From an uncultured delta proteobacterium (GTDB lineage Bacteria > Desulfobacterota > Binatia > Binatales > Binataceae): 64,000 nucleotides of DNA. Made by a program: the position numbers and the translations under genes. The notes under the pieces were generated by a model, which was not told the DNA's origin, did not search any database, and saw only the letters and a list, made by a program, of their open reading frames with translations. This document shows positions 1,917 through 36,135 of this stretch, piece after piece (within the stretch, counting starts at the first letter, position 1; each line of letters opens with the position of its first letter). Location of the stretch: positions 704,001 through 768,000 of the forward strand of contig CAVRVY010000004.1 of assembly GCA_963724765.1 (NCBI GenBank). Reading direction: 5' to 3'.

Positions 1917-2144
1917 TCACGGCGCGGGTGAGTAAGTGGTGGTCGATCGCTTCTGTATTACGCCAGTTGGTGTTGAAGTCGTTGTGGTTGTTGTAGTTTC
2001 GGATGAGGGAGGCGGTGTCTCAACCGGCGGCGCCACCGTACCATACTCGGTCGTCGTGGTGGTTTCTTTTGTGGCCGTCGGTCCACACCCCGCACACGCA
2101 AATGCCGCGGCCGATATGATTAGGAATAATCTTAGTTGTGACAT
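1917..2144 (-). CDS. Small Thr/Pro-rich lipoprotein
   Basis: Signal peptide with lipobox FACAG-C, poly-T tracts, GGAG-rich upstream sequence; two paralog-like ORFs in the window. Confidence 0.75.
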   Translation of the reverse strand: MSQLRLFLIISAAAFACAGCGPTATKETTTTTEYGTVAPPVETPPPSSETTTTTTTSTPTGVIQKRSTTTYSPAP

Positions 2145-2203
2145 CTCCGTCTTCTCCCAATAGAACCATCTAACGACAAGCTTTGCGCTTGCGCCGCGCT
2201 CGC

Positions 2204-2410
2204 TTACTTATTTTTACGTGAAGGAACCTTGGCTCCCGCCTTGCGCGCCTCGGACAACCCTATAGCTATTGCTTGTTTGCGGCTTTTCACCTTCTTACCT
2301 GACCGTCCGGACTTCAGTTTCCCCTCTTTCATTTCGTGAACCGCCCGCCCAACCTTGGAAGACGCTTTCTTGCTGTATTGTCGCGACCGAGTTCCTTTCT
2401 TTTTTGTCAT
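2204..2410 (-). CDS. DUF6496 family small basic protein
   Basis: Motif 'GKLKSGRSGKKVKSRKQAIAIGLSEARKAGAKVP'. Confidence 0.85.
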   Translation of the reverse strand: MTKKKGTRSRQYSKKASSKVGRAVHEMKEGKLKSGRSGKKVKSRKQAIAIGLSEARKAGAKVPSRKNK

Positions 2411-2771
2411 GTTATTTCACCCTAAGAGTTTGAGGATCAGGCCGGAGGGCCTTCCTATTGCGGGTAACAATCACACCGAGAAGTGACGGGTCCATTCGCC
2501 TTCTCGCAGACGAGATGGACAGCGGCGGATCCGACATCAAGCTGTGCGTGGTGCAAACTTCGTGCTGACAGCTTCGAATGCGCTCTGATGGGCTATCGCT
2601 TGAAGTTACAGAGCATAGTCGCGCTTATTGCGCTAGTGGACCGGGCAAGAATTACGTTGAAGAGTAGATTAGAATAGCTACTTAACCGCCCACGGAACGA
2701 GAATCCTTCGAAAGTCCAGTCCGGCCAAAGATCACACGACTACTAGCTTCGTAGCCTGATGAATTTGGGAT

Positions 2772-4166
2772 TCAGTCCTCTTTGAGATGATTATAGAGAG
2801 TCTTCAGAGATACGCCGAGAATCTCCGCGGTTTTTGCCTTGTTGCCACCGGTAGACTTAAGCGTCTGAACCAGAAGCTCGCGCTTAACCGCGTTCAGCGA
2901 CATGCCCACACGCACATCCAAGATGGGGTGCACCCCATTGCCAGGTTTGACCTCGCTTTGTATTCGAGGCGTAACCTCCCCGGCTATGCCAGGTTTGATC
3001 TCCTCTGGTAAATCTGCCAGCGAGATCATCGGACCACGTGTAACGATAATCGCCCGCTCGATTACATTGCGTAACTGGCGTACATTGCCTGGCCAATGTT
3101 GGGATCTAAGCAGCTCAAGACAGTCAGCTTCCATGCCGATAACAGATTTACCAGCGGACGGAGCAAGTTGCCGCAGGAAATGCTCGATTAGGCTCGGCAA
3201 GTCTTCGGAGCGCTCGCGTAGGGTCGGTAGTTGAATCGTAAAAACATTGAGTCTGTAGTAAAGGTCTTCTCGGAATTTCCCCTCGCGAAGCTGTATTTCC
3301 AGATTGCGATTGGTCGCGGCCAGCACGCGCACGTCGACAGGGATCTCGGTGCCGCCGCCCAAGCGGCGAATCTTCCGTTCTTCGAGGACTCGCAGGAGCT
3401 TCGCCTGCAATTCCGACTTCATCTCCCCGATCTCGTCCAGGAGAAGCGTTCCGCCGGTCGCGAGTTCGAAACAGCCTTCGCGGCGGCGATCAGCGCCGGT
3501 GAACGCTCCGCGTTCATGACCAAACAGCTCGCTCTCCATCAGGGTCTCGGGCAATGCGGCACAATTTATGGCGATGTAGGGACCACGCGACCGTGGCGAA
3601 AGATCATGAATAGTGCGAGCCACCAATTCCTTGCCGGTGCCGCTTTCGCCCACGATTACAACCGATGCAGTACTGGGCGCTACCTGCTCGACCAGCGCCA
3701 TTACGCGGCGCATCGCGAGAGACTGCCCGACCATCGGCCCCAGTTCGCCGGCTTCCATCAGGCGACGACGCAAAAGCTGGTTTTCCTTGCTTACGCTTAG
3801 ATGCGTCCGCAGGTTGTTGAGCAGTACCTCCAGATGATGAGGATCGACCGGCTTGCGCAGATAGTCGTAGGCTCCGAGTTTTATCGATTCGACCGCGTCC
3901 TCGATTTCGCCCTCGCCGGAGATCACGATGGTCGGAAGCTGCCAGCCGTTCGCACGGATTTCACCGAGCACCGCCAAGCCGTCTTTCTTTGGTAATCGGA
4001 GGTCGAGCAGGAGAATCTGCGGGTTGCAGCTTTCAATCAACTGCAGGGCGCGCTCGCCGTCTTCCGCGCTGTCAACGCGATATCCCCAGGACGAGATCAA
4101 CGTCGACCACGCTTCGCGCGCGTCCGCGTTGTCTTCGACGATAAGTACCCTCGTACCGGCTTTCAT
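2772..4166 (-). CDS. Sigma-54-dependent response regulator (NtrC/AtoC family EBP)
   Basis: REC domain, Walker A GESGTGKE, GAFTGA loop, LLLDEIGE, WPGNVRQL, C-terminal Fis HTH. Confidence 0.97.
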   Translation of the reverse strand: MKAGTRVLIVEDNADAREAWSTLISSWGYRVDSAEDGERALQLIESCNPQILLLDLRLPKKDGLAVLGEIRANGWQLPTIVISGEGEIEDAVESIKLGAYDYLRKPVDPHHLEVLLNNLRTHLSVSKENQLLRRRLMEAGELGPMVGQSLAMRRVMALVEQVAPSTASVVIVGESGTGKELVARTIHDLSPRSRGPYIAINCAALPETLMESELFGHERGAFTGADRRREGCFELATGGTLLLDEIGEMKSELQAKLLRVLEERKIRRLGGGTEIPVDVRVLAATNRNLEIQLREGKFREDLYYRLNVFTIQLPTLRERSEDLPSLIEHFLRQLAPSAGKSVIGMEADCLELLRSQHWPGNVRQLRNVIERAIIVTRGPMISLADLPEEIKPGIAGEVTPRIQSEVKPGNGVHPILDVRVGMSLNAVKRELLVQTLKSTGGNKAKTAEILGVSLKTLYNHLKED

Positions 4167-4362
4167 AGTGTTCGCTAGCGCAGTCGGTTCGCCCGCCGAA
4201 TAACGCGCCGTTGGCGGGTGGCGAGATACCTCTCCGCAATTCTGAACGTGCGATTCAGCGAGGGCTCAAATAATCCGGCCGCCCTCAACGCGCCTCAGCC
4301 ACACACGCCTTCGAGGTTTGTCTTGCGCATCTATTCTCTCCGTCACCGGGCCTTAAGACGTT

Positions 4363-4378
4363 AGCACCAACGATGCCA
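4363..4378 (-). promoter_or_regulatory. Putative sigma-54 promoter of the EBP gene
   Basis: Minus strand TGGCATCGTTGGTGCT = GG-N10-GC. Confidence 0.55.
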
Positions 4379-4520
4379 CACGCTCAGGCGGACAAGTGCT
4401 AATAAAAGTAGCATAAGATGCAGAAAACATCTATTAGCGTGTCACTGGATAGATATGCGGGCCGCGCGAAATTGTAAAATTTCCTTTTCCTCGCCGTAAA
4501 TCTGGCGTAATTTCGTTGGA

Positions 4521-6600
4521 TTACCGGGCAGGCCGCCTGACAGCCGACGTAACATAGTCGACCAGACGGCTCAGGTCTAATGGCTTGACCATACATGCAT
4601 CGAAGCCTTCCTGGAGCGCGCGCCGTGAATGGTGTGGATCGCTCAAACCGGTCAGTGCGATCGATAAAATCCTCCCAGCTTGCTTGGCCGGGTGCTGACT
4701 TAGCGATCGCATCAGCGCAAATCCATCCTGTCCCGGCATCGCGATGTCACTTATCAGCACGTCGGGAACCTGACGCGCGATTTCCGCCAGTCCCTCTTCG
4801 GTTGACTCCGCAGTAGTGGTATCCGCGCCAAGCCTTCGCAGAAGCTCCGCGAGCGCCTCGCGCGAATCACTATGATCTTCAACGACGAGAATCCTGATTC
4901 CCTCAAGCGTCCGCGACAGCGCATTCAGAGTGTGGGAGTCACGCTGCTGCTCGGGTCCGGTTCGCAGAGTCTGCAGCGGCAGCGTCACCGAGAAGGTGGC
5001 GCCTTTGTCGACCCCTTCACTTTCGACTCTGATGGACCCGCCGTGCAGTTCGACCAGCTTGCGCGCTATCGCAAGTCCGAGACCCAGTCCGTAATGTTCT
5101 CTGCTAGTGCTGCTGTCCGCCTGCCTGAACATATCGAACACGAAAGGCAGGAACTCAGCGCCGATGCCCTTTCCAGTGTCACTCACCGTCAAGGTGACGT
5201 CGCGCGCGCCGCGCTCGAGACTGAGGCGGACCCGGCCGCCCGCCGGCGTGAATTTAACGGCGTTGGACACGAGATTCGAAATCACCTGTTGAAGGCGTTC
5301 GGAATCTCCATTGATGCAAAGCGGCGGACCGCTCCATTGCCATTCGACCTGCAGGTTCTTGGCCTCAGCCGCCGGCCGTATCACATCCAACGCGCTGTCG
5401 ATGAGCGGCATCAGGTCGATCGTACGAAGCGTGAGGTGAACCTTGCCCCTGGCGATCCGTGACAGATCCAGGATCTCATCGATCAGCGAGACCTGCAGAT
5501 GAACGTTGCGCTCGATCGTTTCAAGCGCGCGCTTGGACCCGCAAGGATCGAGGTTGCCACTCTGCAGCAGGTTGACCCAGCCAACAATGGCGTTAAGCGG
5601 ATTGCGCAGCTCATGCGACACGGTGGCCAGGAACTCGTCCTTGATTCGATTTGCCGCTTCCGCCTGGAGCAGCGTCTGATTCTCGATCTCTATATCAGTG
5701 GCCGTGAGAATCCAGCCGGTTATCCCTTCGGCATCGTCACGTTGCGGGATACCGCGTCCGAGATGCCACCTGTAGAGGCCGTCGCGTCCGCGAATTCGAA
5801 ATTTGAGTTCGAACTCGCGATGATTGGCGATCGACTCATTCCATTGCTGCGCCAGATGTTCGCGATCAGTCGGATCGACGGTGTTGAGGAGCGCGTCGCG
5901 GGAAACAGCGCCTTGGGGGGCGACGCCTGTATAGGCCAGTGCGCTCTCGTTCCAGTAAACCGGGCGGCCCTGGTTGTCGGTCACCACCACGCACAGCGGT
6001 ATCGCGTCCGTCAGCTTGCGAAACCTGAGATCGCTCTTGCGCTCGAGTGACTCGCGCTCCTGCTGGCGCAAAGCCGAGGCCTGCTGCTTGATGGTCTGTT
6101 CCTTGAGGTAGAGATCGACGAACACGGCCACTTTGCAGCGCAGGATCTCGGGCTCGAAAGGCCTCACCAGAAAGTCGGCGGCACCCCTGGCGTACCCGTC
6201 CAATATCGAAGCCGAATCGGTATCGGCGGCAGTCAGAAAAATTACCGGCGTGGATTTGGCCCGCCATCTGCTCCGCATCAACTCCGCGGTCTTGAATCCG
6301 TCCAGGCCCGGCATGCGGACATCCATCAGAACGACGGCCATTTCCTCGTGGGCCAACAGCTCGATCGCCTGGTGGCCCGACGACGCCTTGACCAATCTAT
6401 GCCCCAGCGGCTCGAGGATCGCCTCGAGCGCGGCCAGGTTGGCCCGGTAATCGTCAACCAGGAGAATGCTTGCTCCCGCCGCCTGCATCGCCTCGCCATC
6501 CGCGCGCGACTTCTGAGTTCTCGACCGGCTCACCCCAGTAATCGACATCGCATCCGCTCCACCGTTAGCACTTGTATGCGTCGCTTTTCGAACGTCAAGG

Positions 6601-6611
<11 letters not shown>
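4521..6611 (-). CDS. Hybrid histidine kinase REC-PAS-HisKA-HATPase-REC with OsaB-like N-terminus
   Basis: LLVDDYRANLAALEAIL...KVAVFVDLY REC plus coiled coil; PAS/PAC; SHELRNPL H-box; GLGLGL G2 box; C-terminal REC. Start may lie further in. Confidence 0.93.
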
Positions 6612-11379
<4,768 letters not shown>

Positions 11380-12357: not shown

Positions 12358-12382
12358 TCAACCGTCAGCTCGTCGATCTGGA

Positions 12383-12598
12383 TTACGGGTTATAGGTCGT
12401 GGTCGAATGCTGCCGCACGCTTCCATCGTCGGACTGCGTGGTGGTACTGGTCGTGCTGGTCTCACCAGGCGGCTCCGAGGGCACCACCTGAGCCGGCGCT
12501 TCGCTGGTGGTGGTTCTGTGATAACTGAAGCATCCGCTCGCCAGAATCATTGAAAGGCCAGCAATAGCCAGAATCGTCTTGTGCATAACGTGTTGCAT
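12383..12598 (-). CDS. Small Thr/Pro-rich lipoprotein
   Basis: Lipobox LASG-C, GGAGG RBS upstream, ends GSVRQHSTTTYNP. Confidence 0.8.
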   Translation of the reverse strand: MQHVMHKTILAIAGLSMILASGCFSYHRTTTSEAPAQVVPSEPPGETSTTSTTTQSDDGSVRQHSTTTYNP

Positions 12599-12688: not shown

Positions 12689-12704
12689 TGCAGTAGTCGT
12701 GCCA
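12689..12704 (-). promoter_or_regulatory. Putative sigma-54 promoter
   Basis: Minus strand TGGCACGACTACTGCA, ~90 bp upstream of the ATG. Confidence 0.75.
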
Positions 12705-15235: not shown

Positions 15236-15251
15236 AGCAACGAGGGTGCCA
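15236..15251 (-). promoter_or_regulatory. Putative sigma-54 promoter
   Basis: Minus strand TGGCACCCTCGTTGCT, very close to the RBS of the ATG at 15212. Confidence 0.6.
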
Positions 15252-16873: not shown

Positions 16874-19800
16874 ATGGCAGAGGCCGCGCCGAAATTTGCG
16901 CAATTTCCGATCGTCGGCATTGGCGCGTCGGCCGGCGGATTGGAGGCCTTCTCCCAACTTATCAGCATGCTGCCGGAGAATTGCGGGATCGCCGTAGTGT
17001 TCATCCAGCATCTGGACCCCACCCACGAGAGCATGCTTAGTGAAATTCTTTCCCGCAACACGCAAATTGCGGTGAGCGAGGCTACCGATCAGACCGCGGT
17101 TGAGCCCAATCATGTCTACGTCATTCCGGCCAATGCCGATCTTTCGATACGGCATGGCGAGCTGCAGGTAGGTGCTCGCAGGCCCGGACACACACCCATC
17201 GATTCCTTCCTTCGCGCGCTGGCCGAGGATCGCGCCGACCATGCGATTGGCGTTGTGTTGTCAGGAAACGGCTCAGATGGCGCCCTGGGAATTGCGGCGA
17301 TCAAGTCGGCCGGCGGCCTCACTTTCGCCGAGGATCCACGAGCGGCGAAGTTTGACGGCATGCCGCGGGCCGCGATCGCGCTGGGCGACGTCGATTTTGT
17401 GCTACCGCCTGCGGAGATTGGTCGAACGCTTGCGCTTATGGGCAGGGACCCGCTCGCGCTGCGGCACGCAGTGGAACAGGGAGAACTCCCGGATCGCGAC
17501 GGCCTATGGTCCGTACTAGAGGCGCTGAACCAGGCGACCGGAATCGATCTGTCCTATTACAAGCCGGCCAATCTCAACCGGCGCATTCGACGGCGCATGC
17601 TGCTGGGCCAAATTGCCGAGTTCAAGGATTACGCCAAGCTGCTGACAGACAACCCGGCCGAAGCCTTCGCGCTCAGCTAGGATATCATGATCGGCGTGAC
17701 CTCGTTTTTTCGCGATGGCGCTAACGTGGAGGGTCTCAGCGAATTTGTGTTTCCTCAGTTCCAGTTGTCGCCTGACGAGCCTATCAGGATCTGGGTACCA
17801 GGCTGCGCGACCGGAGAAGAAGCCTATTCGATCGCGATCTGTTTGAGCGAATTCCTGGAAAAACTCGGCCGTGACGATCCGTTTCAAATTTTCGCCACCG
17901 ACATAAACGATAACGCGGTCGAGCGAGCCCGCAGTGGAATTTACTCTTCCTCCATCGCAAGCGATGTATCGCCCGAACGCTTGCGGCGCTTCTTCATTCA
18001 GGTCTCGGGCGGTCACCAGGTTTCCAAGCAAATACGTGAGCACTGTATTTTCGCCGGGCATAATCTCGTAACCGACCCGCCGTTCTCCCGACTCGATCTG
18101 GTGTCCTGCCACAATGTGCTCATCTACCTGCGCCCGGAGATTCAAAGCCGGGTTCTCGCGACCTTCTATCAATCGCTCAAGCCGAACGGATTTCTTGCGC
18201 TCGCCCGCTCGGAGAGCGGGGGCGAACTGTTCTCGCAAATTGCCGAGCCCAAATACGGAATCTTTGCCAAGCGGCCGGAGGCTGTTCGCTTGGATAGCGG
18301 AGCCACTGTCGGAGGCCAGAGCTTTGCCCCAAGCCCGCCGCACCGTGGAGATCCTCCCGCCTCGCCGGCCCACGAGCGTTTGGAGAAGGAATTCGAGCGC
18401 GTCCTCCTCCAACGGTATTCACCGCCCGCAGTGCTGGTCGATGAAAACCTGGAGATTCAACAATTCCGCGGCAGCACCGGCGCCTTTCTTGAGCCTCCGG
18501 CCGGAAAGGCCACTCCCAACCTGATTAAAATGTCCAGGGAGGCTATCCGCACGGAATTGCAGACGTTGCTATATAGCTCCCGTCAACATAACAGACCCGC
18601 GCGTTGCGAAAACTTCGAATTCGACGACCACACCGGTCATCACAGGTCACTGACTATCGAGGCGCTCCCACTTAAGCTCTCGCACGGCGGGCGCCATTTC
18701 CTGGTCACGTTTGAGGAAACAACCGGCGTCCAAAGAGTGCGCGGCGGACGGCGCATTGAAAAAAAAGACGGCCGCAGGAGCGTTACCCGCGAGCATGAAT
18801 TGGCGACTGTGGGCAGTGAACTGGAGCGTGCGAAAGCTCAACTCCATTCCATAATCGAGGACCTTGAAGCCTCGAACCATCAGCTCAAAACCGCCAACGA
18901 GGAAGTCCTATCCACCAATGAGGAACTCCAGAGCATGAACGAGGAGCTCCAGACTTCCAAGGAGGAGTTGCAGTCCACCAATGAGGAACTGACCACGCTC
19001 AACGATGAACTGCAAAACCGCTACGCTGAACTCTCCCAGACTTCATCCGACCTCAACAATATATTGGGTAGCTTGAACGTGCCGATCCTGATCCTCTCGC
19101 GGGATCTGCGGATCAGGCGGTTTACTCCGACCGCGACCAGAGTACTCAATGTCATCGCGAGCGATATTGGGCGCCCAATCGGCGACATTACGTTGAATAT
19201 CCATTTGACCGGACTCGAATCGATGGTGGTCGATTCCATCGACAGCATCAGTGTCAGGGAATGCGAGGTTCAAGACCGCGAAGGGCACTGGTATGCAGTG
19301 CGAATCCGTCCCTACCGCACCCTGGATGACCGGATCGATGGCGCGGTCCTGGTAATGATCGATATTGATGATATCAAACGCAGCCTGGAACAGGCGCAGG
19401 CGGCGCGAGACTATGCCGAAGCCATTGTCGAGACGGTAGGCCAGCCGCTTCTGGTGCTTGACGCAGCCTTGACGGTGCGCACGGCCAACCACGCCTTCTG
19501 CGAGGTGTTTCAAACCACGACAGCCGAAATCGAAGGCCAGCGCATATCGCACGCGCAGGGCGGAGCATGGAACCTGCGGCCCTTGATGGAAACGCTCGCG
19601 AACGTGCGCAGCCAAGGGCAGCGCGTCGAAGATCTCGAGCTCGTTTGTCAATCGCCCCGCATGGGCGAACGGCAATTGCTGATCAGCGTTCGCCGCCTGG
19701 AGCAGGATCCATTGAGCGATCCGCTCATCCTGCTGGCGATCGAAGACGTCACGTTACGTCAGAGCGAAGCGCGGTTTCGATTGACCTTCGAACAGGCGGC

Positions 19801-21334
19801 GGTTGGCATGGCCTTGATCGACCCCGGCGGCCGCTGGCTCCGGCTCAACGAAAAACTCTGCGCGATTATTGGCTACTCGCGCGAAGAGCTGCTCAGCCGC
19901 ACGATCGACAACGTTATATATCCCGATGACCTCCCGTCGCATAGCCAGGAGATGGATAGACTACTGTCGGGCGAAAGCCGAGCCGCCCTGCGCGAAGAAC
20001 GCTACCTCCGCAAGGACGGTGCGATGGTCTGGGTCGAATCGGCGATCGTGTTGATGCGTGGGACGACGCGCGAAACTGGCTATTCTATTCTCGTGATGGT
20101 CGACATAACCGAGCGGAAGCGCGCTCAACAGAAGCTGGACGAACTGCTGGCCCTCGAACAGGCCGAGCGTCACGATGCCGAGCAGGCCAGGACCGAAGCC
20201 GAAGCAGCTAATCGCGCCAAAGATCATTTCCTGGCGATGGTATCTCATGAACTGAGATCGCCGCTCCAGGGTATCGTAGGGCGAGTGGAAATCATCCGGC
20301 GCGGAGTTGATTGCGAGCAATTGGAACAGGCCTTGTCCGCGATTGACCGTGGGGTGGAGAAGCAGGTCAGACTGGTCAAAGACCTGCTCGATATTTCGAG
20401 TATCGTCAGCGGCAGGGTCCAGATTGAGCATCGACTGGTGAGTCCCGTCCGGGTTGCGCAGCGCGCGGTCCAGGCCGCGACGCTGGCGGCTAAAGCGAAG
20501 CGGCTGGAGCTTAGCGCTGACTTACCCGACTGTGGCAATGTGCTCGGCGACGAAGATCGTCTGGAACAGGTTTTTAGCAATCTTTTGAGCAATGCGATCG
20601 AGTTCACACCAGAAGGCGGCACAATCAAGATGCAATGCGCATCCGCCGATGGCCATTTTGCGATCCGGATTCAGGATGATGGCGAGGGCATCGCGCCGGA
20701 GTTTATATCGAAAGTCTTTGACCGTTTCAGTCAGGCTGATCCTACCATCTCACGCCGCCACGGCGGCTTGGGGCTGGGACTCGCCATCGCCCGTACCTTG
20801 GTCGAACTGCACGGCGGGACAATCGAAGCGGCCAGTCCGGGGGTGGCCAAGGGCACGAGCATCACGGTAAAATTGCCGCTGGCGCCCGAACCCCTTAATG
20901 CGGTCGAAATGGATGGGAAGCCTGATTCGCCGAGCGAACCCGCGGACCTCCGCGAATTAGAGGTACTGCTCGTGGAGGACGACGCGGATTTGTTGGAAGC
21001 TCTGGCGGTCACCTTCCAGAGCGCGTCCGCCAGGGTGCGCATAGCGCGTTCGGCTGCGGAGGCGCTAGCCGTATTCGGCGAAAAGACTCCAGACGTGTTG
21101 ATAAGCGACATTGCGATGCCAGACCATGACGGACTTTACCTGGTTACTGAGATTCGCAAACTCCACGGCAAGGAAACTCCCGCCATCGCACTGACCGGGC
21201 TTGCCAGCGGCGTCGACCGACACGCCATCATGACCGCCGGCTTTGACGAATGCGTAAATAAGCCTACGTCGCCGCGGAAGCTTATCGAATTGGTAGCTTC
21301 ACTGGTGGGAAGACGCCGGCATCTGGCTGGATAA
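16874..21334 (+). pseudogene. CheB/CheR-PAS-histidine kinase-REC fusion interrupted by in-frame TAG (17678-17680)
   Basis: CheB motifs GASAGG/QHL/GSDG; the same frame continues after TAG into DIMIGVTSFFRD, GCATGEEAYS, a NEELQS coil, PAS domains, SHELRSPL and REC. Confidence 0.88.
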
Positions 21335-27627: not shown

Positions 27628-27686
27628 ATTTGAATGAACCGAATCCTGTTCCGAAAATTTTGCCCGAGGCCATACGGTTCAGCTCA

Positions 27687-29582
27687 ATGGATTCGAACGA
27701 AGTCAGCGGTTCTCGTTCGCCGCTTATCAGATTTTTGTCATTCGTCAGGCCGCACCTGGGGCTCGTAATCGGTGCGGCGCTGACCGGGATCGGTAAATTC
27801 ACCCTGCCGCTCGCCTTTCCGCTTGCCTTTAAATACATCATCGACGTTCTGATCGCATCGCAACCGAAGCTGGACGGAATCAATCTGATGATTGACCGCT
27901 GGTGCGCCGGGCTTGCTCACGTGGCACGGATGACGCCGACCGCGGAGCATAAACTGGCGGCGCTGAGTGCCGCGCTGTTGCTGCTCTACGCATTGCAGTC
28001 CATAGCAAGCTACTACCGCAACTACTGGGCGGGTATCGCCGGCAATCGCCTGATCTTCGAATTGCAGTGCAAGCTGTTCGCGCACCTGCAGCGGCTTCCG
28101 CACGCCTTCTTCGATCGCAATCCATCGGGAGCGATCGTTTCGCGAGTGCTGAACGACGTACAACAAGCGCATGAGCTGGTGAACTCGGCTCTCATCGACG
28201 TCTGGATGGACGCGATATCGTTGGGACTGGTGGTGGTGGTCCTGTTCGCGATGGATTGGCGGCTGGCGCTGGTGGCGCTGTGCATCGCGCCGGTCTGGGT
28301 GACCTTCATGCGGTACTTCTCACCCAGGATCAAGGCCGTAAGCCATCGGATGCAGGAGACGATCGAGAACATTTCCGGCGAAGTTCAGGAACGGGTAGCC
28401 GGGGCCACCACCATCAAATCGTTCGGGCGCGAGGAGCACGAGGTGCGCCGCTTCAGGGAACATAGCGGACGTCTGTGTGAGCGCACGATCGATAAGGTCA
28501 AGCTCGCGGCCCGGCAAGAGATGCTCATCCAGTTGCTGACGCGTTGTGCGCCGACGATCGTGGTGTGGATCGGCGCGCTGATGATCATGCGGGGCACGAT
28601 GACGCTCGGAACGATGGTGGCGTTTTTCACCTACCTCGGGTTTCTGTACCTGCCCCTGGAGCGCTTCGCGCAATTTTCGGTGGTGGTGTCATCTTCGCTG
28701 GCGGCGATAGAGCGCATATTTGAATTTCTCGATATCAAGCCCGAAATCACTAACCATCCACTGAGCCGTCCATTTGCGGTTCGCCGCGGCGGCGTGCAAT
28801 TCGATCGCGTAAGCTTCAACTACCCGACACGCAATGGAGCGGCCAGCCGCGGAACGCTTACGGACCTCAACCTTAGCGTGCAGGGAGGTTCCAAGGTGGC
28901 GCTGGTTGGACGTTCGGGCGCCGGCAAAACGACTTTGGCGAGCCTGATTCCACGCTTCTACGACGTTAGCGGCGGGCGCGTGCTGATCGACGGCAAGGAC
29001 GTGCGGCACTATACGCTGAAATCGCTGCGCGAGAGCGTGAGCCTCGTGGCGCAGGACGCTCTTCTGTTTAGCGCGAGCATCCGCGACAACCTGCTCTACG
29101 CGCGCCCGGAGGCGTCCGAGGAAATGCTCTGGCAGGCGCTTGAGCTGGCCAATATGCGCGAGTTCGTGGACGAATTGCCCGTCGGAATCGACACCGTGAT
29201 CGGTGAGCGCGGGGTAAAAATTTCTGGCGGACAACGCCAACGGCTCGCGCTCGCGCGCGCCTTCCTCAAGGACTCCAAGGTTGTAATCCTCGACGAGGCG
29301 ACCTCGGCGATCGACTCGGAATCAGAGAACTTGATTCACGAGGCGATGGAGCGTCTGATGGAAGGGCGAACTGTTTTTCTCATCGCGCATCGCCTGCGCA
29401 GCGCCATAGACGCTGACCTGATAGTTGTGCTCGACCACGGCAACATCGTCGAAACCGGCATCCACTCCGAGTTGCTTAACCGCGGCGGAACCTACGCCCG
29501 CCTGTTCAGGGAGCAGGTCCGCGGTCTTGCCCTGGAGCCGGCGCGTGCCAGTCACGACGTCCGGCCGCCGATGCAGGCATAG
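27687..29582 (+). CDS. ABC exporter, fused permease/ATPase (MsbA/Sav1866 type)
   Basis: TM domain; GRSGAGKT, ISGGQRQR, ILDEATS, IAHRL; start chosen at ATG 27687 (ORF track gives 27630). Confidence 0.93.
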   Translation: MDSNEVSGSRSPLIRFLSFVRPHLGLVIGAALTGIGKFTLPLAFPLAFKYIIDVLIASQPKLDGINLMIDRWCAGLAHVARMTPTAEHKLAALSAALLLLYALQSIASYYRNYWAGIAGNRLIFELQCKLFAHLQRLPHAFFDRNPSGAIVSRVLNDVQQAHELVNSALIDVWMDAISLGLVVVVLFAMDWRLALVALCIAPVWVTFMRYFSPRIKAVSHRMQETIENISGEVQERVAGATTIKSFGREEHEVRRFREHSGRLCERTIDKVKLAARQEMLIQLLTRCAPTIVVWIGALMIMRGTMTLGTMVAFFTYLGFLYLPLERFAQFSVVVSSSLAAIERIFEFLDIKPEITNHPLSRPFAVRRGGVQFDRVSFNYPTRNGAASRGTLTDLNLSVQGGSKVALVGRSGAGKTTLASLIPRFYDVSGGRVLIDGKDVRHYTLKSLRESVSLVAQDALLFSASIRDNLLYARPEASEEMLWQALELANMREFVDELPVGIDTVIGERGVKISGGQRQRLALARAFLKDSKVVILDEATSAIDSESENLIHEAMERLMEGRTVFLIAHRLRSAIDADLIVVLDHGNIVETGIHSELLNRGGTYARLFREQVRGLALEPARASHDVRPPMQA

Positions 29583-29666: not shown

Positions 29667-30842
29667 TTGGATCGAATTAATGAAGGCAAGAGCGGGCTCT
29701 CGCACGCCGGGGCTCCGCGACTGCGCATCGCGCAGGTGGCGCCTCTATACGAACGGATTCCGCCGAAGCTTTATGGTGGCACTGAACGGGTGGTGTCCTA
29801 CATAACTGAAGAACTGGTACGCCGCGGACATCAGATTACGCTCTTTGCCTCGGGTGACTCACAGACTGACGCACAACTCGCGCCCGGATGTCCGCAGTCC
29901 CTGAGGTTGGCGGGCAAACCTGAACTCGGCGCCTTCCTTCAGCTTCCGATGCTTAGTGATGTCTACGAGGAAGCCGCAAGCCGCTTCGACCTGATTCACT
30001 CTCATATCGATTACTGGAGCTTCCCGTTCGCCCGGCTGACCAATGTCCCGACGGTCGCGACGATGCACGGTCGGCTGGACATGGAGGAGTTGCACCCGGT
30101 CTATGCGCGATATCGCGGCGTTCCGCTGGTCTCGATCAGCGACGCGCAGCGGCAACCGCTGCCGCTTATGAACTGGGTCGATACCATTTACCACGGCCTC
30201 CCGCGCGACCTGCTGCGCTTCAGCCCCGGTCCGGGAAAGTATCTGGCGTTTCTAGGCAGAATCTCACCCGAGAAACGTCCCGACCTCGCAATCGACGTCG
30301 CCCGGCGGGCGGGTATTCCCTTCAAGCTTGCCGCCAAGGTCGACGTCGTCGACCGCGCTTACTTCGAGACCGTGATCAAGCCGCTTCTGTCACCACCCGA
30401 CGTCGAATACATCGGCGAGATCGGCGAATCCGAAAAGAGCGAATTTCTGGGTAATGCACTCGCCCTCATGTTTACTATCGATTGGCCTGAGCCGTTCGGG
30501 CTCGCCATGATCGAGGCCCTGGCATGTGGGACGCCGGTGATCGCGCGGCCCTGCGGCTCCATCCCCGAGGTTATCCGTTCGGGCGTCACCGGCTTTGTCG
30601 CGGGGAGCGTCGACGAGATGGTCGCCGCGGTGGCCAAAATCGGCACGCTCTCGCGGGAGGAATGCCGCCGGGAATTCGAGAATCGGTTCACCGCGGAAAT
30701 CATGGTTGATCGTTACGAGCAGGTTTATCGCCAGCTGATCGAAGGGGGTCAACGTAAGCAGGTTTTTGGAAAGCCGAAAGAGACTTACCATCAGGCCGGA
30801 ATAGCCAGCTCGATCGGTAAGGCTTCCGAATCCGGCTTGTGA
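29667..30842 (+). CDS. Glycosyltransferase family 4
   Basis: IAQVAP..PPKLYGGTERVV; WPEPFGLAMIEALACGTPV. Confidence 0.93.
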   Translation: MDRINEGKSGLSHAGAPRLRIAQVAPLYERIPPKLYGGTERVVSYITEELVRRGHQITLFASGDSQTDAQLAPGCPQSLRLAGKPELGAFLQLPMLSDVYEEAASRFDLIHSHIDYWSFPFARLTNVPTVATMHGRLDMEELHPVYARYRGVPLVSISDAQRQPLPLMNWVDTIYHGLPRDLLRFSPGPGKYLAFLGRISPEKRPDLAIDVARRAGIPFKLAAKVDVVDRAYFETVIKPLLSPPDVEYIGEIGESEKSEFLGNALALMFTIDWPEPFGLAMIEALACGTPVIARPCGSIPEVIRSGVTGFVAGSVDEMVAAVAKIGTLSREECRREFENRFTAEIMVDRYEQVYRQLIEGGQRKQVFGKPKETYHQAGIASSIGKASESGL

Positions 30843-33094
30843 AACGCCGAAGCGTTAACGCCGCTGGCGCGAACGGGCAGGACCGCGTCGCGGACGGCGA
30901 GCGTGGGGCGCGCAACGTAGTAAAAGTCGGTTCCGACTTTTACGTTCTCGCCTCCGCGCTCGCGTCACGCCGCGCCTCACGGGTACTGGCCAATGGCCAG
31001 AGCTTTGCGGTTTTCGACGTCGGCGGCGATATTCTCGACTACCCACTCGAAGCGCTGGGCTTTTTCTATCGCGACACGCGCTACCTGAGCCATTTCGAGC
31101 TCAGGATCCATGGGAGCACTCCGTATTTCCTGAATTCCTACTTGAGCGATGACAAGGCGCAACTTCGGGTCAACCTCACCAATCCGGATCTGAACGCGGA
31201 TGGCCGCGCGATCAAGTTGCCGCGCGATCAAATCCAAATGGAGCGGAGTTGGGTCTTGGCTGACGCGACCCTAGTCCATCGACTTCGGGTCCGCAACTAT
31301 GCCGAGACTCCGCTCCAGATCCCGCTCGAGTTTTTTCTTGGTGCGGATTTCGCCGACATTTTCGAGGTGCGCGGGATCGAGCGCAAACGTCACGGTAGCT
31401 ATCTGCGCCCCGAAGTCGGAAAAGGCAAGGTCAGGTTTTCTTACGCGGGGCTGGACGGCGTGAGGCGCTTCACCGAGGTTGCGTTCGACACGATGCCGCG
31501 GACGCTAAGCGGAGAACGGGCCCTCTTCCTGTTGAATCTCGCCCGGGACGAAACCGCCGGACTTGAGGTTCGCATCACGAGTGGCAGCGAACGCGAGGCG
31601 TCGCACATACGTTCCCCCAAGCCGGCCGGTTTCGACAGCGCACTGGCTGCGCGACGGTCGGAAATCGAGGAATCTCAGACCGGATGGGCCAGGCTTTCGG
31701 CGAGCAACACGCTCTTCGATTCGCTGCTGACTCGCTCGCAGGCGGACCTGACCTCGCTCATTTCGCATACTATCGACGGCACCTTCATAATGGCCGGGAT
31801 ACCATGGTTCGCGACACTCTTCGGGCGCGACAGCATTATAACCACGCTCGCCGTGTTGCCCTTCAATCCGGATGTCGCTGCGCTAACGCTCCGAATGCTG
31901 GCGGGAATGCAAGGATCGCAGATCAACAAGGCCCGCGAGGAGCAGCCAGGCAAGATCGTGCACGAGATCCGTGCTGGCGAGATGGCGGCTACCGGCGAAA
32001 TCCCCTTCGGCCGCTACTACGGCAGTATCGACTCGACGCCCTTGTTTCTGTGGCTTTATGGGCGCTGCGTCGCGACTACCGGAAACCTCGCGTTCGCCGA
32101 TGCGCTATGGCCGAGCGTCGAGCGCGCGCTCGAGTGGATCGAACGATGGGGCGATCGCGATGGCGACGGATACGTCGAGTACATGCGCAAGACGCCCCAC
32201 GGGCTCGCAAACCAGGGATGGAAAGATTCCTTCGACGCAATCTCGCACGCGAGCGGTGAATTGGCCACTGCGCCGATCGCACTTGCCGAAGTGCAGGGCT
32301 ACGTCTACGCCGCCTACGTCAGCGTCGCGGACGTGGCGGCACGCCTTGGACGCAGTGGCGTTGCGTCACGCCTTGCCGAGCGGGCGGCATCGTTAAGAAA
32401 AGCCTTCGTACGCGACTTCTGGCTGGAGCCGCAACGGACCGTCGCGCTCGCCCTGGATGCCGAGAAACAACCTTGCCGGGTAATGGCTTCGAACGCCGCG
32501 CATTGCCTTGCGGCCGGCCTGCTGGACGCGGATCAGGCCGCCGCTCTGTCACAGCGACTTCTCGGGGACGACATGTTTTCGGGCTGGGGCATGCGAACGC
32601 TCGGCGCCAACGAGCGCCGCTATAACCCGATGAGCTATCACAACGGATCGGTATGGCCGCACGACAACGCGATCGCGGCGGTGGGTCTCGCGCGGTATGA
32701 TAATCGCATTGGCGCGCTCAGGATCCTCGAGGGTCTGTTCGACGCAGCCGTGCAACTGGAGACCGCAAGCCTGCCGGAGCTTTTCTGCGGCTTCCCGCGC
32801 GAGCCTCGGCTTGGCCCGGTACCTTATCCTGTTGCCTGTTATCCGCAGGCATGGTCGGCCGCGAGCGTGTTCATGATCCTGCAAGCTGTACTGGGCCTCG
32901 AGGTGATGGGCTTCGAGCGGCGAGTTTTGATCGATTCGCCTACGATTCCGCCCTGGCTCGAATGGCTGAGGATCGAAGATCTGAAAGTGGGGGACTGTTC
33001 GATTTCCTTGTTTCTGCGACGCACAGAAAACGGCACCACCGAGACTGAGATTCTGGAAAGGACCGGCTCGGTTACTGTCGAGGTCAAGAGATAA
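30839..33094 (+). CDS. Amylo-alpha-1,6-glucosidase / glycogen debranching family protein
   Basis: AGIPWFATLFGRD, PGKIVHE, NQGWKDS, YHNGSVWPHD, LPELFCG, PQAWSA. Confidence 0.93.
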   Translation: MKRRSVNAAGANGQDRVADGERGARNVVKVGSDFYVLASALASRRASRVLANGQSFAVFDVGGDILDYPLEALGFFYRDTRYLSHFELRIHGSTPYFLNSYLSDDKAQLRVNLTNPDLNADGRAIKLPRDQIQMERSWVLADATLVHRLRVRNYAETPLQIPLEFFLGADFADIFEVRGIERKRHGSYLRPEVGKGKVRFSYAGLDGVRRFTEVAFDTMPRTLSGERALFLLNLARDETAGLEVRITSGSEREASHIRSPKPAGFDSALAARRSEIEESQTGWARLSASNTLFDSLLTRSQADLTSLISHTIDGTFIMAGIPWFATLFGRDSIITTLAVLPFNPDVAALTLRMLAGMQGSQINKAREEQPGKIVHEIRAGEMAATGEIPFGRYYGSIDSTPLFLWLYGRCVATTGNLAFADALWPSVERALEWIERWGDRDGDGYVEYMRKTPHGLANQGWKDSFDAISHASGELATAPIALAEVQGYVYAAYVSVADVAARLGRSGVASRLAERAASLRKAFVRDFWLEPQRTVALALDAEKQPCRVMASNAAHCLAAGLLDADQAAALSQRLLGDDMFSGWGMRTLGANERRYNPMSYHNGSVWPHDNAIAAVGLARYDNRIGALRILEGLFDAAVQLETASLPELFCGFPREPRLGPVPYPVACYPQAWSAASVFMILQAVLGLEVMGFERRVLIDSPTIPPWLEWLRIEDLKVGDCSISLFLRRTENGTTETEILERTGSVTVEVKR

Positions 33095-33106
33095 TCTTCA
33101 CACATC

Positions 33107-33132
33107 GGCCGCGGCAACCTTCTTTCGCGGCC
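33107..33132. terminator. Hairpin between convergent genes
   Basis: ggccgcg-N12-cgcggcc. Confidence 0.4.
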
Positions 33133-33139
33133 AAACCTG

Positions 33140-33787
33140 TTAGCCCGCAGCGTGGAGCATCTCGAGAATTATGTAAATCGGTGTAGAAGAGGATCGCGCT
33201 GCCATTGATACTGAACGCTCAAGGACTGGATAGGGATCAATTGGAACGCCCTCCCACCAGTGTTTTTGGGGTCCGAGCAGATAGATTGCGAAGTGTAGGT
33301 GAGGAGCAGCGGGGGAAACATCGCCGGTCGACCCAACGTATCCAATCACTTGACCTCGCGAAACGCGCATCCCCTCATGCAGCCCATCGGCATAGCGCTT
33401 CAAGTGAGCATAGTAATAACAGTACACGCTACCGGTGTCGAATTCGTAGATGGTGTTGCCGCCCGCTTTGCTTAAGAAGAGCTTCTCAATGGTACCGTCG
33501 ACGACTGCTCGTACCGGCGTGCCGGCGGGTTTCATGATGTCGATTGCCTGGTGACGGTGACCGTAGTGTGTTTCATCGAAGCTATCGCGTAGCTCGTAAG
33601 CCTTGACGCCCAGGATCGGCGGTGCGATGGCAGGTTCCCATGCTGCGCTCCCGGCTCTCTCGCCCGAAGCGTCGATCTGTTGCGCTTCCAACCCGATGGT
33701 CGCTTTGTGAAGCTTCTCGTTTGTTTGTTGTGTCAAGGCAGTTCTCGGACACACAAGCACTTGCAGGACAATGAATGCCAGCCCCAA
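33140..33787 (-). CDS. M23 family metallopeptidase
   Basis: HQAIDI (HxxxD), YAHL, HLHF; N-terminus uncertain. Confidence 0.88.
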   Translation of the reverse strand: MGLAFIVLQVLVCPRTALTQQTNEKLHKATIGLEAQQIDASGERAGSAAWEPAIAPPILGVKAYELRDSFDETHYGHRHQAIDIMKPAGTPVRAVVDGTIEKLFLSKAGGNTIYEFDTGSVYCYYYAHLKRYADGLHEGMRVSRGQVIGYVGSTGDVSPAAPHLHFAIYLLGPQKHWWEGVPIDPYPVLERSVSMAARSSSTPIYIILEMLHAAG

Positions 33788-33810
33788 TCGCGACCACTAT
33801 GAAACGAGCG

Positions 33811-33826
33811 AGCAATTGCTATACCG
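33811..33826 (-). promoter_or_regulatory. Putative sigma-54 promoter
   Basis: Minus strand CGGTATAGCAATTGCT. Confidence 0.55.
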
Positions 33827-34087
33827 GAAACCGATTACGATCTATAGTTGCGCACTAATCCGTACTTTCAGCGTGGTGGAAGACAATCGTGTACAGAGTC
33901 TCTGCACATTTCGTAAGTTTTTCTCCGCTCTATTAGTCGCCCTTTCCGGTCTATGATTAAATGCAGGTATTATTTGCACTGTCATAGACCTGGATGCGTG
34001 AGGTAACAATGTCACGCCGAGGACTCCAAGTGTGTCTGCCGCGACAACCATGACCGCTTATCGGACGCGGCCGGCACAGTCTTATCG

Positions 34088-35236
34088 ATGATGTCCAAAC
34101 TGCGATCACAATGGGGCGCGGCGCCGTGGCAAAGACCAGCCTCGTTCGCCGTGGATAGAATTGCGCCGCTTGCGGTGTCCTCATCGACTCCTGACGTCGC
34201 GATCGTTGGTGGCGGACTGACCGGCGCATCAACTGCTTATCATCTGACCAAAATGGGAATCCGCGCGATCCTCTTCGAGGCCGGCCTGGTGGGCGATGGC
34301 GCCAGCGGAAGAACCGGCGGCCTAGTCCTCGAAGGTACCGCCGTTGGCATCCTCGATCGCGTCGGCGCGTGCGTGCCGGGCCTGAAAGGGTTGGTCGATG
34401 ATGAGGAAATCGATTGCGACCTGGTTCTTGCCGGATGCTGGGAAATCGAACATAAAAAAGTCGCGCCGGCGCGGATGCTGCCGTGGTCGGACGACGGCCG
34501 CCCGGTGAGTATCGCGCGGACAGTCACTGGTGGGGTAGTGCAACCGGCGGCATTGACGATCGGGATTGCGCGAGCTGCGGCGCAGCGCGGAGCGATCATC
34601 CGTGAGCAGTCACCCGTTACGCGAATCGTTCCGGGCCCGGAGTTATCCCTGGAAATCGGCGACACGCGAATCAGGCCGGGGCATATCGTCGTCGCCACCA
34701 ATGCGTGGATAAATGCGACGCTGCCGGACACCGCGCCGTTGCATAGCTCGCTAACCTTCGCATGTGCTACCGAACCCCTGGATCCCGCGTCGCTAGCCGC
34801 GATTGGACTGGGCGACGGCCTGCCATTTTACACCAGCGACATGCCCTATCTGTGGGGCCGCACGCTTCGCGATGGGCGGGTCATTTTCGGGGCCGGACTT
34901 GTCTATGGCAAGCCTTCCGAGCTCGAAGCCACAGACATTCACAAGGGCAGCTCTGGAGCGCTCCTGGACCGATTGCGGGCGCGCGTGCGCCGACTGCATC
35001 CCGCGCTGCACGAGACGCGCTTCGAGGCAGCGTGGGCGGGGCCGATCGCTTTTGCGCAGGATGCGATCCCGCTCCTGGGGTCGCATCCGGCGAACCCACG
35101 CGTGCTGGTGTCCGGCGGATACGCGGGCCACGGTGTCGCACTCAGCGTGCGCGCAGGCGAACTCCTCGCTCTGGCGATCGGAGAGAGTGTCCCGCTCCCC
35201 GAGTGGGGTTCGCTGTCGCGTGCTGCCCTCGGCTAG
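34088..35236 (+). CDS. FAD-dependent oxidoreductase (DAO/PuuB-like)
   Basis: DVAIVGGGLTG, GASGRTGG, GYAGHGV. Confidence 0.88.
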   Translation: MMSKLRSQWGAAPWQRPASFAVDRIAPLAVSSSTPDVAIVGGGLTGASTAYHLTKMGIRAILFEAGLVGDGASGRTGGLVLEGTAVGILDRVGACVPGLKGLVDDEEIDCDLVLAGCWEIEHKKVAPARMLPWSDDGRPVSIARTVTGGVVQPAALTIGIARAAAQRGAIIREQSPVTRIVPGPELSLEIGDTRIRPGHIVVATNAWINATLPDTAPLHSSLTFACATEPLDPASLAAIGLGDGLPFYTSDMPYLWGRTLRDGRVIFGAGLVYGKPSELEATDIHKGSSGALLDRLRARVRRLHPALHETRFEAAWAGPIAFAQDAIPLLGSHPANPRVLVSGGYAGHGVALSVRAGELLALAIGESVPLPEWGSLSRAALG

Positions 35237-35244
35237 GTCACCAC

Positions 35245-35763
35245 TCAGGGTCGAGGAGGCCGGCTTCCTTCGTAATGCAGGCTCAGACCTTCGATGCCGG
35301 CAGCCACGTTCAAGCCGTTTTGACCCTGGACTGACACCGGCTGCAGTGCGATAGATTTATGAAAGCCGCCGAGCAAGACATTCGCGCCGCCACCTACTCC
35401 CAGGGCCACACTCGCCTGCGCACCGCCGTAGTCTCCCGCCAGCGCGCCAGTACCCAGATCAGTTGTCGGAGCGGCAACAGCCCACAGAATCACAGCTGAC
35501 TGCAAATAGCCAATGTCCGCGCCGAACTTGGAAATGGTACCGGTATAGTATTCGGTTCGATGTTTAGTCGATGTATATGTACAGTGAATGCTATGCGACG
35601 AGCCGATGATGAAACCCCATCCAGCGGCCTCATGACAGGTAAGATAGCCCGTTTTGACTGTCATCTTTCCGGCTGCATACGCGGGCATCGCCGATAGAAT
35701 CAAAAGTAATAGCGCGGGCACCGTGACCATAGTCAAATTCTTGTTTTTCACTGAGCACTCCAT
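35245..35763 (-). CDS. DUF992 family secreted protein
   Basis: GYLTC..GFIIGSS..C..Y.GTISKFGADIG..LQPVSVQGQNGLNVAAGI. Confidence 0.88.
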   Translation of the reverse strand: MECSVKNKNLTMVTVPALLLLILSAMPAYAAGKMTVKTGYLTCHEAAGWGFIIGSSHSIHCTYTSTKHRTEYYTGTISKFGADIGYLQSAVILWAVAAPTTDLGTGALAGDYGGAQASVALGVGGGANVLLGGFHKSIALQPVSVQGQNGLNVAAGIEGLSLHYEGSRPPRP

Positions 35764-35799
35764 TGCATAGTTCCGCTTTCGACAAGCCTTGTGTCGTAA

Positions 35800-36135
35800 C
35801 TACGGATTAGTGGTAGTCGTCGTTGTCGTAGACGACCCCGGCGCTCCGTTGTTCCAGGTAGTCGTACTCTGGTTCTGGACCTGACCATCGACAGATCTGG
35901 TCGTCCTTTTCTCCTCCACGGTTCCATTACCCCAGCTGGTTGAGGTAGTTGTTTGGCTCGCATCCGAGGCGGGCGCGACTACGACGGGAGCCGGAACTTG
36001 CACAACGGGAGGTGGTACTTGCACCACGGGGGCAGGCACCGTGTCCACCTCCTTGGTGCTGGAGAAACATCCGGCAAACATGCCGCCGATGGCGAGCGAT
36101 ATCACCAAGGAGCCAAAACGTGTATATAAACGCAT
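35800..36135 (-). CDS. Thr/Pro/Val-rich lipoprotein
   Basis: GAGGTG RBS; lipobox MFAG-C; PAPVV repeats; GQVQNQSTTTW; poly-T end. Confidence 0.8.
   Translation of the reverse strand: MRLYTRFGSLVISLAIGGMFAGCFSSTKEVDTVPAPVVQVPPPVVQVPAPVVVAPASDASQTTTSTSWGNGTVEEKRTTRSVDGQVQNQSTTTWNNGAPGSSTTTTTTTNP

Follow-up and report, generated by a model that had tools for sequence, protein, structure and literature searches.

The question raised by the DNA analysed here is whether three short, threonine-rich open reading frames (ORFs), all lying on the minus strand of a 64,000-nucleotide stretch from an uncultured delta proteobacterium of the Binataceae (contig CAVRVY010000004.1, positions 704,001 to 768,000; hereafter the window), are genuine genes and, if so, what their products may do for the cell. 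A sequence-only reading of the window had grouped these ORFs, here named A (1917..2144), B (12383..12598) and C (35800..36135), as a family of small lipoproteins with a shared C-terminal motif. All together, the data presented below establish that A, B and C are genes of one family under selection at the protein level, and tentatively suggest that they encode envelope-stress lipoproteins controlled by sigma-54.

Conservation and Selection on A, B and C

The ORF listing returned all three ORFs at these positions and on this strand, and the motif strings that had been quoted for them (GVIQKRSTTTYS, GSVRQHSTTTYN and GQVQNQSTTTWN) were found in their translations, with Pro as the last residue in each case. 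When all six frames of the 5.4-Mb genome were translated in full, the strict pattern G.[VI]...STTT[YW][SN] was matched three times, solely by A, B and C, while residue frequencies predict approximately 0.0025 matches by chance. As the three ORFs themselves had supplied the pattern, this count is circular, and the weight of the argument therefore rests on the homologues.

A hidden Markov model (HMM) built from the three ORFs, as the sequence-only reading had proposed, was run on related genomes and gave matches in 15 of 41 (E<=0.01). Specifically, 11 of the 16 other genomes of the same genus hold 2–5 copies, and three other genera gave weak matches only (E 2e-4 to 4e-3). The copies within the genus sort into three orthologous groups, corresponding to A, B and C, so that the three ORFs can be regarded, as had been suggested, as paralogues of one family. 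The median ratio of nonsynonymous to synonymous substitution rates (dN/dS) was 0.095 in group A (seven orthologues), 0.167 in group B (eight orthologues) and 0.138 in group C (seven orthologues), with a median dS of 0.7–1.1 in these groups. In addition, more than one codon is used in 18/18 invariant Thr columns of group A, 7/8 of group B and 14/15 of group C. Low dN/dS together with synonymous codon change in the Thr columns indicates that the target of selection is the protein, not a DNA repeat.

These observations bear directly on the alternative that the ORFs are not genes at all, being chance frames in GC-rich DNA with ACC/ACG-rich repeats. The ORFs are short and low in complexity, and no library names them, which would fit such an explanation; nevertheless, it is refuted, with practically no probability left to it, by dN/dS values of 0.1–0.17 at a dS of 0.7–1.1, by the conservation of frame, start region, lipobox and stop across 24 aligned sequences, and by the roughly 100 metagenomic clusters that match. 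An artefact of composition only is likewise ruled out by position-specific conservation combined with low dN/dS: the motif, for which pure compositional bias had been named as a refuting outcome, proved to be conserved in homologues according to orthologue dN/dS, codon variation and an alignment of 40 members. In conclusion, A, B and C form a real gene family.

Family Range and Database Status

A profile made from the 24 aligned sequences matched 106 proteins in a 90%-identity collection, nearly all of them named 'hypothetical', with a few mutually inconsistent automatic names and one Candidatus Binataceae label. When the same profile was run against 1.84 billion metagenomic representatives, 99 clusters were matched at E<=1e-3 and 21 at E<=1e-10. 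The median length of the 99 representatives is 84 amino acids (aa); a lipobox-like pattern is present in 92 of them, the pattern TTT[x][YWF] in 61 and both in 56, several of those without both patterns being visibly truncated or frameshifted. The commonest form is the B type, whose consensus reads: leader G-C, F-S-Y-H-[KR]-x-V-x-E-T, a Pro/Val/Ala spacer, T6-8, then x-D-[DN]-G-x-V-[EQ]-[RK]-x-[ST]-T-T-T-Y-x-N-P and the protein end. Among 40 diverse members the Cys is invariant and the preceding Gly is conserved in at least 90%. Multi-repeat forms also occur (P0087, P0094, P0125, P0137, P0151 and P0214). Of 401 genomes sampled evenly across the phylum, 2 were matched at E<=1e-4, namely the genome of the window and one from the same family, outside which the proteins are thus rare.

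No name could be attached to these proteins, in agreement with the initial impression that they belong to no named family. A, B and C had no match above cut-off in Pfam or NCBIfam, and a sequence profile search of the PDB gave no family match, its lone alignment (E 0.61) covering the signal peptide only. The ESM Atlas neighbours of B are unnamed 'hypothetical' clusters, most commonly assigned to Candidatus Binatota, together with one Verrucomicrobiota cluster (score 0.90) that is to be taken as a lead only; the mature part of C, compared with the named ESM Atlas clusters, gave no usable match. A literature search found no paper on a small Thr-rich lipoprotein family nor on DUF6496, the family of a neighbouring protein described below, and the main text of the paper on Binatota genomes (PMC8262859) contains none of the words lipoprotein, threonine, sigma and BON. 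All these results are consistent with A, B and C representing a new, lineage-restricted and unnamed group of putative mini-lipoproteins.

Two sets of candidate names were considered and rejected. Membership in LptM was discarded since the NCBIfam model NF047847 scored 10.7 bits on A (E 0.44) against a cut-off of 27.7, aligning with residues 1–21, the signal peptide, only, and did not match B or C. The Pfam 'New_glue' and cytomegalovirus matches lie below their cut-offs and represent low-complexity noise.

Anatomy and Predicted Structure

The signal peptide of A (75 aa) contains two Cys (FACAGC); further elements of this protein are an N-terminal TKETTTTTEYG, a spacer rich in Pro, a Thr tract and the C-terminal end GVIQKRSTTTYSPAP. 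In the 71-aa product of B, the lipobox ASGC is followed by FSYHR, a Pro-rich spacer, TSTTSTTTQ, the turn SDDG and then SVRQHSTTTYNP, the C-terminal end being GSVRQHSTTTYNP. The product of C, of 111 aa, shows the lipobox FAGC, FSSTKEV, a long (P-x-P-V-V-Q-V)n spacer and a predicted four-strand Thr-rich meander with W at two strand ends, and it ends with GQVQNQSTTTWNNG...TTTTTTTNP. The start of C was placed at the ATG at 36135, 11 nucleotides (nt) after a GAGG, because the orthologues begin at the MR... position; a longer, TTG-started frame would reach 36231.

A common anatomy emerges from these sequences: a signal of the signal peptidase II (SPII) type ending in G/A-C, a post-Cys stub (FSYH[KR] or FSSTKE), a Pro/Val/Ala-rich spacer of approximately 15–40 residues, and a C-terminal module made of 6–8 Thr followed by x-D-[DN]-G-x-V-[EQ]-[RK]-x-[ST]-TTT-[YW], with the end of the protein a few residues further on. 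The mature chains contain about 30–40% Thr and have Pro-rich flanks. The SPII assignment is based on the lipobox pattern and on a predicted N-terminal helix, the criterion for the former being a basic n-region, a hydrophobic h-region and [LVI][ASTVI][GAS]-C within about 15–35 residues of the start. The lipobox that the three ORFs were said to share is canonical in B (ASGC) and C (FAGC); A has it only in an atypical form, with two Cys (FACAGC), of which the Cys at -3 is unusual. On this basis, A, B and C are very probably lipoproteins.

The spacer of C (window 35980-36060; also in L005, L006 and L017) is a tandem repeat of the 7-residue unit P-x-P-V-V-Q-V, whose copy number differs among species and orthologues, while the flanking stub and beta-module are invariant. 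Such variability in repeat number is what a spacer typically shows.

The sequence-only reading had also proposed Thr-rich beta-hairpins around a Gly turn, and AlphaFold2 models agree with this proposal at moderate confidence. For B, modelled with 40 aligned members, the prediction consists of a leader helix (residues 2–23), a low-confidence segment (24–46) and two strands (47–55 and 61–69) with a predicted local distance difference test score (pLDDT) of about 72–76; the first strand is the Thr tract, the second is V-R-Q-H-S-T-T-T-Y, and the D/N-G turn between them is S-D-D-G. For C, modelled with 16 aligned sequences, an antiparallel four-strand meander was obtained (strands 60–68, 73–82, 85–95 and 102–109; pLDDT 70–78), with turns at G-N-G, D-G and N-N-G-x-P. 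The predicted sheet is polar on both faces and its edges are open, with V and Y/W at the two ends of one face. As strand 1 consists almost entirely of Thr and strand 2 closes with S/T-T-T-T, each face would display T-x-T-x-T ranks on adjacent predicted strands. The C-terminal module is thus predicted to form a Thr-ladder hairpin of two strands in A and B and a meander of four in C, and we regard the hairpin fold as somewhat more probable than not. A complex prediction with four copies of mature B (residues 24–71) scored 0.00 in a run without controls, and speaks neither for nor against self-assembly.

Putative Sigma-54 Promoters

Near-consensus sigma-54 promoters had been noted upstream of two of the three genes. 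We searched for sites with a -24 GG and a -12 GC element spaced by 10 nt (TGGCAC-N5-TTGCW), on the coding strand and upstream of a gene. The pattern TGGCAYN6TGCW occurs five times in the window, against 0.49 expected, and none of 100 shuffles reached five; all five sites lie on the minus strand, upstream of minus-strand genes. Genome-wide the pattern has 57 matches, and the window is therefore approximately 7-fold enriched. One of the five sites (TGGCACGACTACTGCA, 12689..12704) is located about 90 nt before the start codon of B, and another (TGGCACGACGATTGCT, 36183..36198), a full match to TGGCACG-N4-TTGCW, precedes C. The other three map upstream of an NtrC-type activator gene (TGGCATCGTTGGTGCT, 4363..4378), of an NTP-transferase gene (15236-15251) and of a gene for a 141-aa secreted protein (TGGCATATTGCTTGCT, 36768..36783).

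The site of B reads TGGCACAAGAGGTGCA or similar in relatives, and a relaxed GG-N10-GC regular expression was positive at the same place in at least six of eight B-centred loci; in the most distant of these (L038) the sequence is TGGCATAAAGCTTGAT, with TTGAT replacing TTGC. The site of C was found by regular expression in three of seven C loci, the same type being present in L004 and L017, and a further variant was recognised by eye in L002; in L005 and L006 the C gene lies closely behind the upstream gene. Hence, both promoters noted earlier are real matches to the consensus and are conserved in orthologues. To these can be added a third, imperfect sigma-54-like site on the minus strand, absent from the sequence-only reading, which precedes the DUF6496 gene found directly upstream of A: the regular expression places it at 2552..2567 (CAGCACGAAGTTTGCA), 157 nt before the DUF6496 start, and by eye five orthologous loci show CGGCACGGGATTTTCAT at the same place, approximately 150 nt before DUF6496.

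The genome has the machinery that such promoters would need, with one rpoN match (PF04552, 4.3e-60) and about 28 strong matches to the enhancer-binding activator domain PF00158, one of which (window 2772-4166) is adjacent to A. Scans for sigma-70 promoters and terminators around A, B and C gave nothing above shuffled expectation, and no sigma-70-like site was found upstream of any of them. A search of sequencing runs listed no RNA run containing the window; the ten runs listed, apparently of DNA, contain it in part, none of them reaching half of its words. Control of the family by sigma-54 thus appears likely from the promoter sequences and their conservation.

As a separate observation, similar sigma-54-type sites precede paralogous small stress-type ORFs elsewhere in the genome.

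Conserved Neighbours and a Fourth Paralogue

Two of the three genes turned out to lie in conserved surroundings that had not been noted before. A small basic protein of the DUF6496 family without signal peptide (2204..2410, minus strand; PF20106, E 1.6e-21) is encoded 60 bp upstream of A and directly precedes it in seven of eight A-type loci; the two genes are probably co-transcribed. Directly upstream of this pair, on the same strand, lies the NtrC-type sigma-54 activator gene (2772..4166), whose product combines a receiver, an AAA+ sigma-54 interaction domain and a Fis-type helix-turn-helix (PF00158, 4.8e-71; PF00072; PF02954). The activator-DUF6496-A block is present in all four B-centred loci that reach that far. 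The interval between B and the activator is occupied in the window by two hybrid histidine kinases (4521..11379, minus strand), identified with Pfam as a PAS-HisKA-HATPase protein with receivers and a 1592-aa kinase with a HAMP array and a GAF domain. These kinases are not kept at that position in relatives, and L031 has other genes there, including an AAA_22 ATPase.

C belongs to a conserved trio of genes for exported proteins. It is preceded by the gene for the secreted 141-aa protein (36279..36704, minus strand), which has no Pfam match, and directly followed by that for a secreted DUF992 protein (35245..35763, minus strand; PF06186, E 1.7e-48). The trio is complete in four of six C-type loci and each neighbour is present in five of six, the 141-aa protein having been traced by tblastn.

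Scanning the genome with a B-type profile revealed that the family has at least one further member, located outside the window (G000:C1:136707-136925) and tied to BON-domain genes, which extends the three-member picture of the sequence-only reading. This fourth paralogue, which is more divergent and ends in PDTSATVERQHTTTYTNSSP, lacks the Gly turn. The gene that it directly precedes encodes a periplasmic BON-domain protein (PF04972, E 7.7e-16) and is followed by a second BON gene; the adjacency of paralogue and BON gene is found in 4/4 genomes that have the fourth paralogue, while only about seven genes of the genome encode BON. A second link is provided by fusions: two of the 99 metagenomic representatives (P0144 and P0154) carry a C-terminal BON domain within about five residues of the TTTTY strand, one of these clusters having 14 members from several sources and the other being named OsmY at its source. 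A search for longer fused forms gave two proteins, one with an over-extended start and one multi-repeat, so that BON is the sole fusion partner seen. A, B and C themselves have no Pfam BON (PF04972) match even at E<=1. According to three papers (PMC7806268, PMC8081527, PMC11747388), the BON domains of OsmY and DolP, proteins of the osmotic and envelope stress responses, bind membranes and phospholipids.

The fourth paralogue sits in an envelope cluster (L040, G000:C1:135790-138400) that also comprises, upstream of it, genes for a collagen-repeat/OmpA-domain protein and for a secreted protein rich in Thr and Ser whose C-terminal motif is related, in addition to the two BON genes. In L048, the BON gene that comes after the fourth paralogue is followed by a gene for a Ser/Thr/Pro-rich 148-aa lipoprotein of no known family (2220-2666, plus strand).

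Other Features of the Window

The window encodes, on the minus strand, a 2880-aa GH94/glucoamylase-type protein (46654-55296) that resembles cyclic beta-1,2-glucan synthases. Near this gene are found a phosphoglucomutase (44037-45722, minus strand), an ABC exporter (27630-29582, plus strand) and a GT4 glycosyltransferase with a debranching-enzyme-like hydrolase (29667-33094, plus strand). Genes of these kinds are typical of periplasmic glucan and osmolyte metabolism, and those of the window could form such a module. M23/LysM and DPBB wall enzymes are also encoded. In L037, ABC, GT4, MFS and Kelch genes lie immediately beside a B-type gene.

Two further loci of the window deserve mention in their own right. 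An in-frame TAG (17678-17680), with a same-frame ATG 6 nt after it, breaks a CheB-CheR-PAS-histidine kinase-receiver fusion (16874-21334, plus strand) between the N-terminal and the catalytic domain of CheR; a nonsense mutation, a sequencing error or a truly split gene could account for this. Overlapping ORFs at 39360-40232 and 40109-40789 (plus strand), each with a PLD-like domain, could likewise be a frameshifted or a truly split gene of the phospholipase D/cardiolipin-synthase type.

Proposed Role and Alternative Explanations

The reading that we favour overall, with a probability of roughly 0.4, is that the family consists of sigma-54-controlled envelope-stress lipoproteins holding a polar, edge-exposed beta-sheet on a stiff tether. 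A signal relayed by sigma-54 activators would lead to synthesis of the lipoproteins, whose lipid anchor and stiff Pro-rich tether would present a small, very polar, open-edged beta-sheet in the periplasm. The sheet would then bind a partner, either by strand addition or via the hydroxyls that crowd its faces; in the case of the fourth paralogue, the BON-domain protein encoded beside it would be the likely partner, and the two together would correspond to a BON lipoprotein split into two pieces. Envelope or water stress (osmotic, drying) may be what this pathway serves. Taken separately, a role in envelope stress has a little less than even odds in our judgement, and that of a strand-adding adaptor is somewhat unlikely.

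Several results weigh against this reading. The confidence of AlphaFold2 is moderate only, spacer and stub are predicted to be disordered, an isolated 18-residue hairpin may be unstable, and Foldseek, run with the model of C against the PDB, returned no match at E<=1e-3, its top rows being generic beta-meanders. On the side of regulation, the site before DUF6496-A is never a full GG-N10-GC, having AG for GG in the window and TC for GC in the five orthologues; no activator-binding 8-mer is common to three or more of six promoter-upstream regions; and, as the genome holds about 28 activators, B or C may be driven by one other than the adjacent activator. As to the stress, A, B and C have no BON neighbour and the neighbours of B vary among genomes, and the window owes its 'osmotic' flavour only to association across tens of kilobases.

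The same evidence can be read in other ways. The Thr tracts could be O-glycosylated, forming a mucin-like coat, that is a hydrated, protease-resistant sugar brush on the envelope in which the hairpin is incidental. Mature chains with 30–40% Thr and Pro-rich flanks are what this explanation calls for, Thr/Pro clusters of bacterial lipoproteins can carry O-glycans, and seven ORFs of the genome exceed the cut-off of a PMT/GT39-type family. That model is however unspecific, because E. coli and other control genomes match it too, and no glycosyltransferase is found among the conserved neighbours of the family; moreover, the conservation by position of G, V, Y/W, the TTT count and the C-terminal end in 40 members, along with low dN/dS, is better accommodated by a folded or binding element, and we consider the coat unlikely. 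A folded element may instead serve to build a self-assembling sheet, the hairpins of many copies, whether of A, B and C together or alone, stacking edge-to-edge or face-to-face; the resulting beta-sheet lattice, amyloid-like or of a single layer, would make the envelope stiffer or seal it. The open edges and polar faces of the predicted hairpin and meander would allow it, several co-regulated paralogues exist per genome, and forms with at least three repeats (P0087, P0094, P0125, P0137 and P0151) indicate that the unit can be concatenated. Yet Thr-rich strands with charged R, K, E and H, as in strand 2, are also typical of soluble sheets, and a Pfam scan of the window revealed nearby neither the chaperone nor the nucleator genes that known amyloid systems have; we rate assembly as distinctly unlikely.

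The position of B and A, which bracket signalling genes on one strand, and the conserved activator-DUF6496-A block also raise the idea that A and B are sensor accessories feeding envelope information into the adjacent two-component pathway, rather than its outputs. QseG, RcsF and NlpE act in this way in enterobacteria, and the sigma-54-dependent qseE-qseG-qseF operon contains a lipoprotein gene. Against this idea, sigma-54 promoters of their own mark the family genes as outputs, relatives do not keep the kinases that separate B from the activator, C and the fourth paralogue are encoded a long way from systems of this kind, and Pfam and NCBIfam reveal no similarity to the QseG, RcsF or NlpE families; we hold it to be slightly less likely again than assembly. 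Finally, the hydroxyl/methyl arrays of Thr might order water or ice and guard the envelope during freezing or drying, in the manner of the T-x-T ranks used by insect antifreeze and bacterial ice-nucleation proteins. T-x-T-x-T ranks do recur on adjacent predicted strands, and the BON/OsmY link suggests water stress; but the surface is very small (2–4 strands) and of moderate predicted rigidity, Pfam, Foldseek and PDB searches gave no homology or fold match to ice-binding families, and a protein in the periplasm would not meet bulk ice; we consider such a function very improbable. A bolder combination, namely a lipid-anchored single-layer 'threonine ladder' sheet of 2–4 strands on a rigid Pro tether, whose hydroxyl/methyl arrays order water, ice or glycan at the periplasmic face of a membrane under water stress signalled through sigma-54 and which docks BON proteins in trans by adding a strand, is highly doubtful, if not quite as improbable as a purely ice- or water-ordering surface.

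Annotation mostly passes over the small proteins that uncultured bacteria of soil and peat encode; in the present family, both anatomy and context are unusually clear. A hairpin that proved to be a tethered module for strand addition or water ordering would be a new building block for bacterial envelope stress biology, and at the same time a very small, synthesisable peptide with which the behaviour of Thr-ladder beta-sheets could be tested. Should the 'threonine ladder' be true, it would represent the smallest known membrane-tethered module for ice/water structuring or beta-augmentation. Even as a merely glycosylated brush, the family would still merit a name and would still mark a sigma-54 stress regulon in Binataceae.

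Comparison with Known Systems

Nothing in the family contradicts ordinary envelope biology, and its features can be set beside those of several known systems. The sigma-54 modules ZraSR-ZraP and QseE-QseG-QseF place the gene of an NtrC-type activator beside that of a small exported protein, as is the case at A. Unlike them, the family shows no ZraP or QseG homology in Pfam or NCBIfam, comprises several dispersed paralogues with their own putative sigma-54 promoters, and lacks a conserved cognate kinase. In the actinobacterial 19-kDa lipoproteins of the LpqH type, Thr clusters are O-glycosylated and the Thr/Pro-rich stretches lie near one terminus, whereas the host of the present family is a diderm of the Binataceae and its Thr tracts are C-terminal, inside a conserved predicted hairpin. 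The single-layer beta-sheet of Borrelia OspA and the T-x-T faces of antifreeze proteins offer structural analogies, with lipid-anchored, polar, exposed antiparallel strands, D/N-G turns and ranks of Thr; in contrast to these, the predicted sheet of the family is much smaller, has no Foldseek match in the PDB at E<=1e-3 and shows no sequence relation.

Closer resemblances are found among small lipoproteins of stress regulons. The enterobacterial OsmB, EcnA/B and LptM/YifL have 50–110 aa, an SPII signal and a short low-complexity mature chain, and belong to stress regulons; the body of LptM is Pro-rich and disordered, which is a likeness to the family, and OsmB is Gly-rich and not Thr-rich, which is a difference. 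None of OsmB, the entericidins and LptM is known to be related to the family in sequence or to have the T6-8-DG-xVxxxSTTTY module. As for the BON envelope proteins (DolP/YraP and OsmY), the likeness consists in envelope location and association with stress, with the BON fusions (2/99) and the BON adjacency (4/4) on the side of the family. However, A, B and C have no BON domain, are a third to half the size, have a Thr-rich hairpin as their only predicted fold and appear to be driven from sigma-54 promoters, while DolP and OsmY use sigma-E and RpoS. The combination of a lipid anchor and a flexible linker in DolP, as described in PMC7806268 and PMC8081527, also resembles the layout of the family. 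In conclusion, judging from sequence, the family appears to behave most like the small stress-regulon lipoproteins and the BON proteins, yet to belong to neither, and what is unusual in it is its minimal functional module.

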